DNA of 64,000 nucleotides from a virus (IMGVR_UViG_3300045988_160394:32001-96000), one strand, 5' to 3'; positions 12,767 to 22,466 are shown, counted from the first letter of the stretch. Made by a program: numbers and translations. Notes: generated by a model from the letters alone, not told the origin.

Positions 12767-13465
12767 ATGGAATCATTAAAAAGACAATTTAAAAATTGGA
12801 CGACGTTAGACTATGCATGGTTAGTCATAGCTAACGCAATAATACTAGGATTAAGTTTATATTGGCAAGATAGTGTTATATCTATAATATCTGCTATTAC
12901 AGGAGTTACATGTGTAATTTTTGTATCTAAAGGAATGATGGCAAACTATATTGTTGGTGCTATTAATGTAGCTTTATATGCATACTTAGCTTTTAAATCT
13001 AGAATATATGGAGACTTTATGTTAAATGCATTTTATTATTTTCCAATGCAATTCATAGGTTTATATATGTGGAGTAAAGCTAGAGATAAAGAAGAAGACC
13101 ATGAAATAAGATCTAAAGCTTTAGACCATAAACAAAGAATAATATTATTTTTAGTGAGTATAGCTGCTATATTAGTTTATGCTGAAATATTAAAGCTATT
13201 AGGAGGAAATGTTCCTATAATAGATTCTACATCAACTGTATTATCTGTAATTGCTATGATATTAATGGTTAAACAATACTTAGAACAATGGTACCTATGG
13301 GTTATAGTAAATGTAGTTTCTATAATAATGTGGGTAATTTCTCTTTCAGAAGGAAGTGGAGATGTAGCTACACTAATAATGTGGATATTATTCTTACTTA
13401 ATAGCTTATATGGTTTATGGAACTGGAAGAAAGAAAATAAAAAGCAAAACAGTAAGGATTGTTAA
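12767..13465 (+). CDS. pnuC: PnuC-type nicotinamide riboside transporter
   Basis: About 7 predicted TM helices, Trp-rich helices, C-terminal LYGLWNWKK typical of PnuC. Confidence 0.7.
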   Translation: MESLKRQFKNWTTLDYAWLVIANAIILGLSLYWQDSVISIISAITGVTCVIFVSKGMMANYIVGAINVALYAYLAFKSRIYGDFMLNAFYYFPMQFIGLYMWSKARDKEEDHEIRSKALDHKQRIILFLVSIAAILVYAEILKLLGGNVPIIDSTSTVLSVIAMILMVKQYLEQWYLWVIVNVVSIIMWVISLSEGSGDVATLIMWILFLLNSLYGLWNWKKENKKQNSKDC

Positions 13466-13467
13466 AA

Positions 13468-13728
13468 ATGCTTATAAATATTGAAGAATTAGATCAGTTA
13501 ATGCAAGAAGATACAACTGATTGGAAAAATGTAAAACCAGGCAGTAAAGTTATAGTAGTTAATAGATATCAAAGATATGCACTGAAAAGATATTTCCATT
13601 CTTATAATAAAGAAAATGAAGGTTTCCCTTTTACTGTAGCGTTAACAAAAGATGATAACTTTACTGGAATAAAAGCTATAATAGATGATACTAATTATTC
13701 TATATGTTTTTTATTAGAGGAGGAATAA
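13468..13728 (+). CDS. hypothetical protein
   Basis: ORF track (ATG 13468 in frame with 13459). Confidence 0.5.
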   Translation: MLINIEELDQLMQEDTTDWKNVKPGSKVIVVNRYQRYALKRYFHSYNKENEGFPFTVALTKDDNFTGIKAIIDDTNYSICFLLEEE

Positions 13729-13731
13729 AAT

Positions 13732-13962
13732 ATGATGATAATAGATTTAAAATCAGCACATGTCTATCGTTCTATTAGTGAAGTATTTTATCAAAATCCT
13801 GAATTAGAAAAAAATAGACAAAAAGTTATAGATCAATTAAACAAAACAGATTATTATAAAGATAAAAATACTTTTTTATGTGATATAAATAAATATGAGC
13901 TTATAAAAAACGAATATGAAAGTTTTATAACAAAATTAAATGAAGTATTTAATTTAAAATAA
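13732..13962 (+). CDS. hypothetical protein
   Basis: ORF track; ggagga RBS. Confidence 0.5.
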   Translation: MMIIDLKSAHVYRSISEVFYQNPELEKNRQKVIDQLNKTDYYKDKNTFLCDINKYELIKNEYESFITKLNEVFNLK

Positions 13963-13965
13963 ATA

Positions 13966-13995
13966 ACAGCGGCTATATGTCGCTGTTTTATTTTT
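13966..13995 (+). terminator. intrinsic terminator
   Basis: acagcg-loop-cgctgt hairpin plus tttatttttt. Confidence 0.7.
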
Positions 13996-14008
13996 AAGAG
14001 GTGATAAA

Positions 14009-14344
14009 ATGAGTTTAGATGAAGCTATAGAACATTTAAAAGAAAAGTTAGATGAGAATGATTTTATATGTGAAGAATGCAAGAATGAACATAAACAATT
14101 ATTGAAATGGCTATTAGAATTAAAATCTTATAAGAAAAAAGAAGAAGAATACGGCTGTTATTATTTATGTTATTGGAAAAACGAATTTAATGATGATGAA
14201 TCTTTTAAAGATAAATTTATGACAACAACATTTATTGATACAGAAGAAGAATTAAAAAGTAAAATAAAAGAAATAGATGATCAGTTTCCATTATTAGAAG
14301 TTGATTTTTATGGAAGAATGATTGACTTTAAGGAGGATGTTTAA
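14009..14344 (+). CDS. hypothetical protein
   Basis: ORF track; gaggtg RBS. Confidence 0.55.
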   Translation: MSLDEAIEHLKEKLDENDFICEECKNEHKQLLKWLLELKSYKKKEEEYGCYYLCYWKNEFNDDESFKDKFMTTTFIDTEEELKSKIKEIDDQFPLLEVDFYGRMIDFKEDV

Positions 14345-14346
14345 TT

Positions 14347-20018: not shown

Positions 20019-20084
20019 TTACTCCAAGTAGTTCATTATAAAAGCATATTTAATGACTTTCAATATAATTTATAAAAAGATAAA

Positions 20085-20277
20085 GGGTGTTTTACCATCC
20101 TAAAAGTGAGAAAGTGATTTTGGAAACGGCTTAAATGATAAGCTTAAAATAAATTTAATACTCTCACTAAACGCTCCAATAAAGTTATTGGTAAAAAGCT
20201 AGTGCAAAATGATTAAATTCAGGCGTGTACTAGAATACATTTTTTATTAAAGTAAACGGATTGGCTTAAATATACTG
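20085..20277 (+). ncRNA. tracrRNA-like scaffold, copy B (ends uncertain)
   Basis: Collinear with copy A, larger insert in stem 2; anti-repeats 20244..20257 and 20265..20272 match the B-type repeat. Confidence 0.55.
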
Positions 20278-20338
20278 GTTGAACTTTAACAAGAATTGTA
20301 TTTAAAGATGTGCTCTTTTGGCACTAATGTATTTAAAG
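20278..20338 (+). CRISPR. mini array B: one diverged 30-nt repeat, about 18-nt spacer-like segment, partial repeat
   Basis: gttgaactttaacaagaattgtatttaaag (21/30 to repeat A) at 20278..20307; repeat 3' end tgtatttaaag recurs at 20328..20338. Confidence 0.45.
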
Positions 20339-20383
20339 AAATATTAATTAAGATTTGATATTGATATATATGTTAAAATAAAT

Positions 20384-20407
20384 ACTCTTCCCAATTGAGG
20401 GAAGAGT
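20384..20407 (+). terminator. strong 9-bp stem-loop closing the CRISPR locus (no clear T-tract)
   Basis: actcttccc-aattga-gggaagagt. Confidence 0.4.
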
Positions 20408-20426
20408 AAAGTTAAAGGAGATTTTT

Positions 20427-20993
20427 ATGATATTGTATCATGTAAGTGAAAATTTGAACAATTATATTGATGTTTTCTATCCAAGAATACCATCTGAAGA
20501 TAGAATGTGTCTAGGAGAAAATATTTCCATAAAAAGAGTATGCGTATCATCAAATATAGCTGGAGCTTTTTCTGCTATGCCAAGAGAAGATGATATAGCT
20601 AATAAGAAGTTTAGAGTATATGAATTTGAATTAGACGAAAAAGATAAAGATTTATTAGATTATAAAACAATATATAATAGAAATTATGTTCAAGATAGTT
20701 TATGTACTAAAGAACATTGGATATTAAAAAATATTAAGCCATCAAGGCATTATGATATAATAGTAAAAAGTTATGATAATGAATTGATACCTGTTTTACG
20801 TAAAGATTTATGGAAAACTTATTTTAATACATACGCAGATGATCAAGATGCTTTCTTAGAGAAAAACGGTGGCTTTTTAATGTCAGCTTTTAAAAAAGTA
20901 TTTTATATAAAAGATAATGTCGAATTTATATCTGAAAATGATATATATGAATATTTAAATTATGATAGGAGTGATATTAATGGTTTATATTAA
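20427..20993 (+). CDS. hypothetical protein
   Basis: ORF track; aaaggag RBS. Confidence 0.6.
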   Translation: MILYHVSENLNNYIDVFYPRIPSEDRMCLGENISIKRVCVSSNIAGAFSAMPREDDIANKKFRVYEFELDEKDKDLLDYKTIYNRNYVQDSLCTKEHWILKNIKPSRHYDIIVKSYDNELIPVLRKDLWKTYFNTYADDQDAFLEKNGGFLMSAFKKVFYIKDNVEFISENDIYEYLNYDRSDINGLY

Positions 20994-21207
20994 AGTTTAT
21001 GATAGATATATAAACAAGCCAATAGATCAATTTAAATTAAATATAAATGCAGAAAAGCTTTCAGTTGGAGATCGTATTATTTGTAATAAAAAGAATGGTA
21101 CATCAGAAGAGTATAGGATTAAATCAATACGCCATGAAATAGCATTTGAAGGCGGATATGAAGAAGATGTAGCTGCATATAAAAAAACAATAATAGAAGT
21201 AAATTAA
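20980..21207 (+). CDS. hypothetical protein
   Basis: ATG 20980 in frame with track ORF 20962. Confidence 0.5.
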   Translation: MVYIKVYDRYINKPIDQFKLNINAEKLSVGDRIICNKKNGTSEEYRIKSIRHEIAFEGGYEEDVAAYKKTIIEVN

Positions 21208-21233
21208 TACTTATAAATAAGGGGAGATATTAT

Positions 21234-22466
21234 ATGAGCCGTAAATATTGTACAAGAAACGCTTGTGAAAACGAAAAATTAATAGATAAATGTACATGTT
21301 GTTTCGATTGTGATCTTATTGGAGAATGTGAAGCAGAAGTTAAATGTATCATAAGAACAAAGGACAATTATATGGATTGTCCTTTTATAGGAAAAAGAAT
21401 TAATGAAGGGGAGACTACTATGAATAAAATAAATGATTTACCTAAGGTTGGAGTATTCTTTGGTAAGATGATACCACCTCACAGAGGACATTTAACAGCT
21501 ATTATTAATGCAGCTACTAGATGTCAAAAACTTTATGTTGTAGTAAGTGATAATAAACATACAACAGAAGAAATATGCAGAGAATCAGGTATAAAAAATA
21601 TACCTGTAGAATTAAGAATTCAATGGCTATGTCAAGAGCTTCAAGACTTAGATCATATTAAAGTTGTTGCTCTTGATGAAACACATATACCTGCATATCC
21701 TAATGGATGGGATGAATGGTGTGATTTAATGAGAAAGGCTGTTAAAGAAGATATTGATACTTTCTTTTGTGGAGAAGAAGAATATTGTAAGCAATTAAAA
21801 GAGCATTTCCCAGGTTCAGATGTAATTCTATTTGATCCACAAAGAAATACTTATAATATAAGTGCTACTACAATAAGAACTAATCCTCAAAAACATTGGG
21901 ATCATATATTAGGACCTGCTAGACCATTCTTTGCTAAGAGAGTATTAATAGCAGGGACTGAAAGTACAGGGAAGACTACAATGGTTAAGTACTTAGCTAA
22001 ATTATATAATACTTCATGGTCAGAAGAAGTAGGAAGATATTATGCTTCTAAATTCCTAGGAGGAAATGAAGAAATTTTTACTGATGAAGATTTTACTAGA
22101 ATAGCATATCAACAAATAGAACAAGATTACGCAGCTCTTAGAAGTTGTAATAGAGTTTGTTTCTTTGATACTGATCCAACAGTTACTCAATACTATTCTA
22201 CTTTATATATGGGGCATAAAAACCTTGAAGTAGAATCAGCTATTAATCCAACTAAATATGATATTGTTATATTATTAAAACCAGATGTTGAATGGGTTGA
22301 TGATGGACAAAGATTAAATGGTGATCAAGAAAAAAGAGAAGAATTACACAATAGATTAAAATATATGTATCTTGAAAGAGGTTTTAAGAACGTTGTTGAA
22401 GTATCTGGAGATTATAATGAAAGATTAACAGCTATTATAAATATTGTTGATGATTTATTAAAGTAA
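21234..22466 (+). CDS. nadR: NadR-type bifunctional NMN adenylyltransferase / ribosylnicotinamide kinase with Cys-rich N-terminal extension
   Basis: GKMIPPHRGH (HxGH nucleotidyltransferase), ISATTIR, then Walker A GTESTGKTT kinase domain. Confidence 0.8.
   Translation: MSRKYCTRNACENEKLIDKCTCCFDCDLIGECEAEVKCIIRTKDNYMDCPFIGKRINEGETTMNKINDLPKVGVFFGKMIPPHRGHLTAIINAATRCQKLYVVVSDNKHTTEEICRESGIKNIPVELRIQWLCQELQDLDHIKVVALDETHIPAYPNGWDEWCDLMRKAVKEDIDTFFCGEEEYCKQLKEHFPGSDVILFDPQRNTYNISATTIRTNPQKHWDHILGPARPFFAKRVLIAGTESTGKTTMVKYLAKLYNTSWSEEVGRYYASKFLGGNEEIFTDEDFTRIAYQQIEQDYAALRSCNRVCFFDTDPTVTQYYSTLYMGHKNLEVESAINPTKYDIVILLKPDVEWVDDGQRLNGDQEKREELHNRLKYMYLERGFKNVVEVSGDYNERLTAIINIVDDLLK

Follow-up and report, generated by a model that had tools for sequence, protein, structure and literature searches.

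Phage NadR was listed among the enzymes that reconstitute nicotinamide adenine dinucleotide (NAD+) against NADase effectors (Iyer et al. 2022; PMC9503650), and an additional reconstitution route was proposed for the phage NadR-PnuC operon (Osterman et al. 2024; bioRxiv 10.1101/2024.02.11.579819). A 2024 survey of gut 'NAD-jumbo phages' in Microbiome (PMC11662467) recorded pnuC in 68 and an NAD-dependent ligase in 90 of 174 such phages, together with pnuC-nadR-nadM clusters. The pathway termed NARP3 was demonstrated by transport assays, enzymology of both steps, crystal structures, and Sir2-HerA rescue (Yan et al., Sci Adv, 12 Aug 2026; PMC13464706). Our tblastn searches of phage records found NadR homologues in 779 and PnuC homologues in 878 records, many of them already annotated as such; the two families occur in the same phage genera in nearly equal numbers, e.g., Salmonella (NadR/PnuC, 173/177), Klebsiella (47/47), Bacillus (24/24), Prevotella (15/15), and Erwinia (14/14). 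Here, we analyzed a 64,000-nt stretch of viral DNA (IMGVR_UViG_3300045988_160394:32001-96000, referred to as the window), which encodes a PnuC-type transporter and a NadR-type enzyme. The two genes very probably constitute a NARP3-type nicotinamide-riboside salvage pair, carried by a likely jumbo phage. The preliminary description of the window regarded a PnuC/NadR route as a distinct solution, on the grounds that the described phage NAD+ pathways use other enzymes; this view has been superseded by three of the above reports (Iyer et al., Osterman et al., and Yan et al.). The window pair is a new, split NARP3-type example in a jumbo-phage lineage; the pathway idea itself is already known. The central features are as follows.

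12767–13465, + strand: pnuC, encoding a PnuC-type nicotinamide riboside transporter of 232 aa (Pfam, NCBIfam, PHROG, and PDB matches)
7 nt upstream of pnuC, + strand: its Shine-Dalgarno sequence, AAAGGAGA (read from the sequence)
21234–22466, + strand: nadR, full open reading frame (ORF) of 410 aa (NCBIfam NF005988, Pfam, and PHROG matches)
21420–22466, + strand: the NadR enzyme body, residues 63–410, with its own ATG (M63) (family and structure matches)

For PnuC, the coordinates and the family proposed earlier were upheld by profile hidden Markov models. The protein matched the NCBIfam equivalog TIGR01528 ('nicotinamide riboside transporter PnuC') with an E-value of 1.5e-48 and 165 bits against a cutoff of 42, the Pfam family PF04973 (NMN_transporter) at 5.1e-50, and PHROG 1880, a phage auxiliary metabolic gene (AMG) family, at 4.3e-69. 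It aligned over its full length with the crystallized PnuC of N. mucosa (4QTN, nicotinamide riboside-bound; 3.3e-48). Residues of Bas30_87, the PnuC of NARP3, were mapped onto the window protein via the Bas30_87-like PnuC of the T5-like phage Wa28. Two of the three residues that contact nicotinamide riboside (NR), Q94 and N180, are kept in the window PnuC as Q95 and N182. An Rfam scan returned no NAD+/pnuC-motif riboswitch; the gap upstream of pnuC measures only ~20 nt.

The NadR-type bifunctional assignment of 21234–22466 was likewise borne out. NadR matched the NCBIfam equivalog NF005988 at residues 69–409 (9.5e-74, 249 bits, cutoff 201), PHROG 3462 (a phage AMG family; 2.2e-105), and two Pfam domains, CTP_transf_like (cytidylyltransferase-like) at residues 75–216 and AAA_28 at residues 236–397 (1.3e-33). 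Reading of the sequence placed the nicotinamide mononucleotide (NMN) adenylyltransferase (NMNAT) domain at ~71–225, with the HxGH motif (H83-R-G-H86) and the ISATxxR motif (I209-SATTIR215) intact. The ribosylnicotinamide kinase (RNK) domain at ~235–400 retains Walker A (G241-TESTGKT, 241–249) and the Walker B residues D312/D314. The best match among solved structures was 9X6F/9X6H (1.2e-70, residues 69–409), i.e., Bas30_86, the NadR-like enzyme of NARP3 (PMC13464706). Further PDB matches were 1LW7 (4.8e-57) and 8X7F (8.6e-56). An AlphaFold (AF2) model was confident for residues ~70–410, and its top Foldseek matches were all NadR proteins (8X7F, 1LW7, and 6GYF).

We also compared the 20 Bas30_86 residues that were reported as ligand contacts or mutagenesis positions (PMC13464706). 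All of them map onto the window NadR at a consistent offset, and 11 are identical. Among the residues that mutagenesis showed to be required in Bas30_86, K10, S37, E80, P84, G89, F110, and D275 are retained as K78, S105, E149, P153, G158, F178, and D343, respectively, and E230 is conservatively changed to D298. The pocket residues F11 and S112 are altered (F11M and S112G). No family match indicated a helix-turn-helix (HTH) domain in the window NadR, and the NF005988 homology begins at model position 63.

According to the mechanism established for the homologues, PnuC would facilitate the uptake of NR, which the C-terminal P-loop kinase domain of NadR would trap as NMN by phosphorylation. The HxGH nucleotidyltransferase domain would adenylate NMN to NAD+. 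NAD+ kept available in this manner during infection could help against NAD+-depleting defences. The transport, the enzyme activity, and the anti-defence benefit are thus predicted for the window pair from the characterized Bas30_86 and Bas30_87. The route from NR through NMN to NAD+ is well supported by homology, owing to the 9X6F match and the conservation of the Bas30_86/87 residues. This logic, already put forward in the preliminary description, holds by homology, with the catalytic residues conserved.

The linkage of pnuC with nadR is conserved in related jumbo contigs. In L002, a related contig of 251 kb, pnuC lies 2.2 kb 5' of nadR, with a NADAR gene between them and a Nudix gene 2.3 kb 3' of nadR. 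In the IMG/VR contig L005, pnuC is 2.6 kb 5' of nadR, and a Nudix gene follows 13 nt after nadR. The two genes are direct neighbors in T5-like, Vibrio, and Bacillus phages. The window carries the following NAD+-related neighbors.

17536–17988, + strand: NADAR-domain protein between pnuC and nadR (L002 8933–9376; Pfam PF08719, 1.9e-31; TIGR02464, 6.2e-27)
25839–26420, + strand: Nudix hydrolase of the ADP-ribose pyrophosphatase (YffH/AdpP/NudE/NudF) type (Pfam NUDIX, 7.6e-15; intact Nudix box)
9202–11238, + strand: NAD+-dependent DNA ligase LigA, a putative NAD+ consumer, ending 1.5 kb 5' of pnuC (Pfam DNA_ligase_aden, 2.1e-37)

The NADAR gene is syntenic in L002 and L003. Its product scored above the cutoff of TIGR02464, the YbiA-type N-glycosidase model, and below that of the NADAR 'anti-phage' model. 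The protein likely processes ADP-ribose derivatives; ADP-ribosylated DNA and other molecules are further candidate substrates. A linkage of NADAR to phage NAD salvage genes was noted earlier (PMC9503650). The best NCBIfam matches of the Nudix protein were hydrolases of ADP-ribose or ADP compounds, all below cutoff, and its counterparts are linked to nadR in L005 (11096–11647) and L002 (13365–14012). LigA contains OB, Zn, HhH, and BRCT domains, and both its adenylation motif (KFDG, of the form KxDG) and the domain Ia motif YYxxxxxxSDxEYD are intact. It reached 352 bits with NF005932 (6e-105), under the cutoff of 369.

The source of the window is most likely a jumbo phage of ~260 kb with a low-GC host. 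The 64-kb window has 27% GC, a single coding strand, 4–5 tRNAs, inteins, and homing endonucleases. A NadR identical to that of the window (P0123) and close variants were found on contigs of 212–265 kb, and a relative with 60% identity is located on the 248-kb IMG/VR viral contig L005. The phage carrier assumed in the preliminary description is plausible in view of these contigs; the window alone, being devoid of structural genes, leaves it unproven. The closest cellular NadR homologues (57–63% identity) come from Clostridia metagenome-assembled genomes. They were not accepted as evidence for the host, because those loci have 51–67% GC (one has 45%) versus 27% in the window.

Several observations weigh against the assignment of the pair as a NARP3-type system. 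The gap between pnuC and nadR is 7,768 nt (~7.8 kb) and contains ~20 ORFs, so that the genes do not form an adjacent two-gene operon. Terminator-like hairpins occur between them on the + strand at 13965, 15428, 17500, and 19616; such hairpins are strongly enriched in the region (13 versus 1.8 expected). The non-operonic arrangement, the 7.8 kb gap, and the at least four hairpins mean that co-expression of pnuC and nadR is not assured. A promoter scan gave 93 candidates where 96 were expected, which carries no information in DNA this rich in AT. At the residue level, N45 of Bas30_87 is replaced by G46 in the window PnuC, a position that is also Gly in the PnuC of N. mucosa, a proven NR transporter. 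The RNK pocket of NadR carries the changes K163P and D164F relative to Bas30_86. No virion or structural genes were found in the 64-kb window, and many ORFs are orphans. Finally, the counter-defence benefit is an extrapolation, because neither a NADase-type defence nor a host has been identified. Against these points stand the family assignments, the structural alignments, and the retained catalytic residues, and we retain the NARP3-type salvage pair as the very probable interpretation.

The N-terminus of NadR differs from that of the described enzymes, and the following features are involved.

21234–21419, + strand: in-frame, Cys-rich N-terminal add-on of NadR, 62 codons with 9 Cys, orphan (dN/dS, Cys invariance)
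21219–21227, + strand: Shine-Dalgarno 9-mer AAGGGGAGA for the ATG at 21234, giving the long form (read from the sequence)
21406–21414, + strand: identical 9-mer AAGGGGAGA, lying 5 nt upstream of a second, internal ATG (21420, M63), a candidate start for extension-free NadR (read from the sequence)

Residues 1–62 contain 9 Cys (14.5%), compared with 1.7% Cys across the ORFs of the window. Only 17 of the 12,960 windows of 62 aa reached 9 Cys, and all of these fall in two ORFs. The extension had a dN/dS of 0.17 in its own frame and above 1 in both other frames, relative to the 90%-identical variant L004. All 9 Cys were invariant across the 12 full-length members of the cluster, while eleven other positions varied. 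Each of these 12 variants, which belong to one species and lie on contigs of up to 265 kb, retained the fusion. Searches of Pfam, PHROGs, 1.84 billion representative proteins, and 5.8 billion clusters retrieved no homologue of the extension; the window and the related loci contain no paralogue, and its back-translated DNA patterns had no match in JGI metagenomes or IMG/VR. The AF2 model of full-length NadR yielded no usable or docked fold for residues 1–61 (pLDDT ~30).

Three candidate homologues of the extension were discarded. P0121 (72 aa) seemed to be a free-standing homologue, but its contig terminates with Illumina adapter sequence, from which the last residues of the protein, EEIGRAHV, were translated. 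The match to P0122, a 1067-aa repeat protein, was spurious and due to low complexity. A tblastn hit in Bacillus phage C30-3 began at query residue 24, as though the extension were conserved in that phage, but the corresponding ORF measures 345 aa and is extension-free.

The comparison with relatives bears on the origin of the extension. Nearly all NadR relatives are 343–362 aa long and begin at the M63 position, without an N-terminal domain. This includes the closest relative, P0002 (350 aa, 89% identity). Homology to all other NadRs starts at window residues 67–72. In the natural variant L087, a 17-nt deletion truncates the Cys-rich ORF to 50 aa, and a separate NadR of 348 aa starts from the M63 ATG; the site GAAGGAGAGA, the equivalent of the internal Shine-Dalgarno sequence, serves this separate ORF. 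The preliminary description had a Cys-rich extension of 60 aa replacing the HTH domain. A Cys-rich segment, 62 aa in length, is indeed present and the HTH is missing, but this is no general HTH replacement, since nearly all relatives have no N-terminal domain of any kind. As a separate observation, four phage NadR relatives of ~655 aa (P0034, P0037, P0038, and P0045) harbor an intein-like insertion of ~300 aa within the kinase Walker A motif. The insertion separates GSESC from CGKTT, begins with VDCD, and ends with HN.

The extension is a lineage-specific, fused Cys-rich peptide confined to one phage species, and the enzyme can be defined without it. It is most simply read as a small Cys-rich gene that joined nadR by an in-frame fusion in that species. 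In a first alternative explanation, the N-terminus is not a functional NadR domain, but the product of a small upstream gene fused through stop loss, with the enzyme made mainly or also from M63. We assign this explanation somewhat less than an even chance. It is favored by the identical Shine-Dalgarno 9-mers: of only three copies of AAGGGGAGA in the 64-kb window (0.26 expected), two precede the ATGs of the long form (21234) and of M63 (21420) by 5–6 nt. The homology boundary, the start of P0002, and the split ORFs of L087 point in the same direction, as do the undocked N-terminus in the AF2 model and the many other small Cys-rich ORFs in the phage. The retention of the fusion in all full-length variants, the invariant Cys residues, and the low dN/dS speak against it. 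In addition, the sister NadRs P0007, P0021, and P0023 have independently gained unrelated N-terminal treble-clef Zn-ribbons (DUF2116/NinG-like, 2.8e-6), which suggests that N-terminal add-ons were possibly selected. NadR may be made in a long and a short form. It is also conceivable, although rather unlikely, that the Cys-rich N-terminus and the sister Zn-ribbons are metal- or redox-sensing or nucleic-acid-binding modules. These would functionally replace the HTH and yield an NAD+-responsive regulator, or the two identical Shine-Dalgarno/ATG sites would give rise to regulated long and short isoforms.

A second alternative concerns the benefit of the pathway rather than its chemistry. The pair could be a general auxiliary metabolic module that feeds the NAD+-consuming machinery of the phage (LigA, and dehydrogenases such as FolD) in an NAD+-limited host. 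This proposal overlaps mechanistically with the NARP3-type assignment and differs from it in the selective benefit alone. The NAD+ supply would also serve NAD+-dependent enzymes of the phage in the latter case, e.g., LigA. The proximity of LigA, with its KxDG and domain Ia motifs intact, to pnuC supports a supply of the phage's own enzymes alongside counter-defence. The window also encodes many replication and repair proteins (GyrA/B, SSB, RecA, Rad52, and NrdG), and the jumbo-phage survey argues for a self-sufficient NAD+ supply (PMC11662467). On the other hand, an anti-Sir2-HerA effect was demonstrated for the homologous pair (PMC13464706), and the nearby NADAR and ADP-ribose-type Nudix genes point to the handling of NAD+ cleavage products. 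We regard the purely metabolic benefit as a tentative possibility.

A third explanation, that the transporter is another Pnu-family vitamin carrier (thiamine or riboflavin type) unrelated to NadR and the pathway coincidental, is highly improbable: the genes are non-adjacent and probably in separate transcription units, and one of the three Bas30_87 NR contacts is lost, but the TIGR01528 score lies far over its cutoff, the alignment to the NR-bound structure is full-length, the N. mucosa PnuC has Gly at the N45 position too, and the linkage of the genes is kept in two related jumbo contigs and tightens to adjacency in many other phages.

The interval between pnuC and nadR also accommodates a miniature type V-F-like CRISPR locus (18296–20340, + strand), with the following effector gene.

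18296–19636, + strand: Cas12f-like effector ('TnpB') of 446 aa, a full-length AsCas12f homologue (8J12, 8DZJ, and 7WJU; 4e-69 to 5e-68)

The protein retains intact RuvC motifs (GIDLG, QMEDLS, and NADINAS) and contains a CxxC..CxxC zinc finger. Downstream of its gene lie two tracr-like scaffolds (~19716–19888 and ~20083–20277), and the anti-repeat of each matches its own downstream repeat. Array A consists of repeats at 19889–19917 and 19955–19983 with a 37-nt spacer between them, followed by a degenerate repeat at 19989–20017. Array B has a repeat at 20278–20306, then 20 nt, and then a partial repeat at 20327–20338. The repeats reach the gathering score of Rfam CRISPR-DR3. The sister strain L003 has identical flanks, with two different spacers replacing the single spacer of the window. 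A 45%-identical relative on a viral contig (L089) has four repeats that belong to this family as well. Cas1/2 genes were not seen near the locus, and searches for a protospacer of the window spacer gave nothing significant.

Other genes of the window were also noted. A MazF/PemK-like toxin-type protein (11759–12178, + strand; 2.7e-19) is encoded just upstream of pnuC, and an SPFH/Band-7 membrane protein (16622–17494) and a ferritin-like protein (23197–23685) are further unusual cargo. The carrier further encodes a GroEL/Cpn60 chaperonin (28258–30888, + strand) with a LAGLIDADG homing-endonuclease (intein-like) insertion at residues ~294–357, as well as ClpP and a ClpX-like ATPase (38968–41637). 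A 281-aa protein (31014–31859, + strand) has a C-terminal HicA-toxin domain that scored below cutoff. A Pnkp-RNA-ligase fusion of 730 aa (57093–59285, + strand) combines polynucleotide kinase (AAA_33), metallophosphatase, and T4 Rnl1-type RNA ligase domains; by its domain content, it is presumably a single-polypeptide tRNA-repair enzyme against anticodon nucleases. A cluster of tRNAs for Gln, Ile, Met, and Asn lies within 34129–35738 (+ strand). An additional 119-nt Rfam tRNA match (34129–34247) was not called by ARAGORN and may be an intron-containing or otherwise interrupted tRNA; a GIY-YIG endonuclease gene (34340–34966) adjoins it. GyrB (43837–45804) and GyrA (47361–49550; both + strand) are separated by ~1.5 kb with no long ORF, and the GyrA ORF matches its Pfam model from position 66 only; an intron, an intein, or a homing-endonuclease insertion may interrupt the gene. 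The RecA ORF (51129–51791) has only 220 aa and may be truncated or split.

With the NARP3-type assignment of the pair, NR salvage, which was demonstrated in enterobacterial phages, would extend to an uncultured, low-GC jumbo-phage lineage. The pnuC and nadR genes need not form an operon, and they share a conserved neighborhood with NADAR, ADP-ribose-type Nudix, and NAD+-dependent ligase genes. Operon-based searches would miss the split genes, because they are non-operonic here; counts of NAD+ counter-defence genes in surveys would therefore benefit from this context.

The closest described system is NARP3 of Escherichia phage TrudiRoth (Bas30_87 PnuC and Bas30_86 NadR; 9X6H/9X6F; PMC13464706), which comprises the same two families, is phage-borne, and has an HTH-less NadR. 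The window NadR aligns end to end with Bas30_86 and shares with it the HxGH, ISxTxxR, and Walker motifs as well as most of the ligand-contacting residues. Identity is ~38% between the window NadR and the T5-like Bas30_86 homologues (tblastn) and 37% between the window PnuC and that of phage Wa28. NARP3 is an adjacent operon in a T5-like enterobacterial siphovirus, whereas the window has a 7.8 kb gap in a 27% GC, ~260-kb probable jumbo phage. The extra 62-aa Cys-rich N-terminus of NadR and the linked NADAR and Nudix genes are further differences on the side of the window. The gut NAD-jumbo phage clusters (PMC11662467) resemble the window in the jumbo context, the linkage of pnuC with nadR, and the presence of an NAD-dependent ligase and replication genes. 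They are annotated at the survey level, and the text searched does not describe the split arrangement or the Cys-rich N-terminus.

The NMNAT and RNK core is shared by the window NadR with the cellular trifunctional NadR (E. coli/Salmonella, 8X7F) and the H. influenzae NadR (1LW7). The winged HTH of the trifunctional enzyme is absent from the window protein; thus, there is no evidence for a repressor function. NARP2 and the NadV-NatV system of phage KVP40 (nicotinamide phosphoribosyltransferase (NAMPT) plus an NMNAT-Nudix protein) are phage salvage routes that end in the adenylation of NMN, as predicted for the window. The entry substrates differ: NARP2 starts from nicotinamide and phosphoribosyl pyrophosphate via NAMPT, an enzyme not seen in the 64-kb window, whereas the window pair would import NR through a transporter and phosphorylate it with a kinase. 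The ADP-ribose-type Nudix hydrolase is fused in NatV and is a separate neighboring gene in the window, and its linkage to nadR echoes the NMNAT-Nudix fusion of NadM/NatV.

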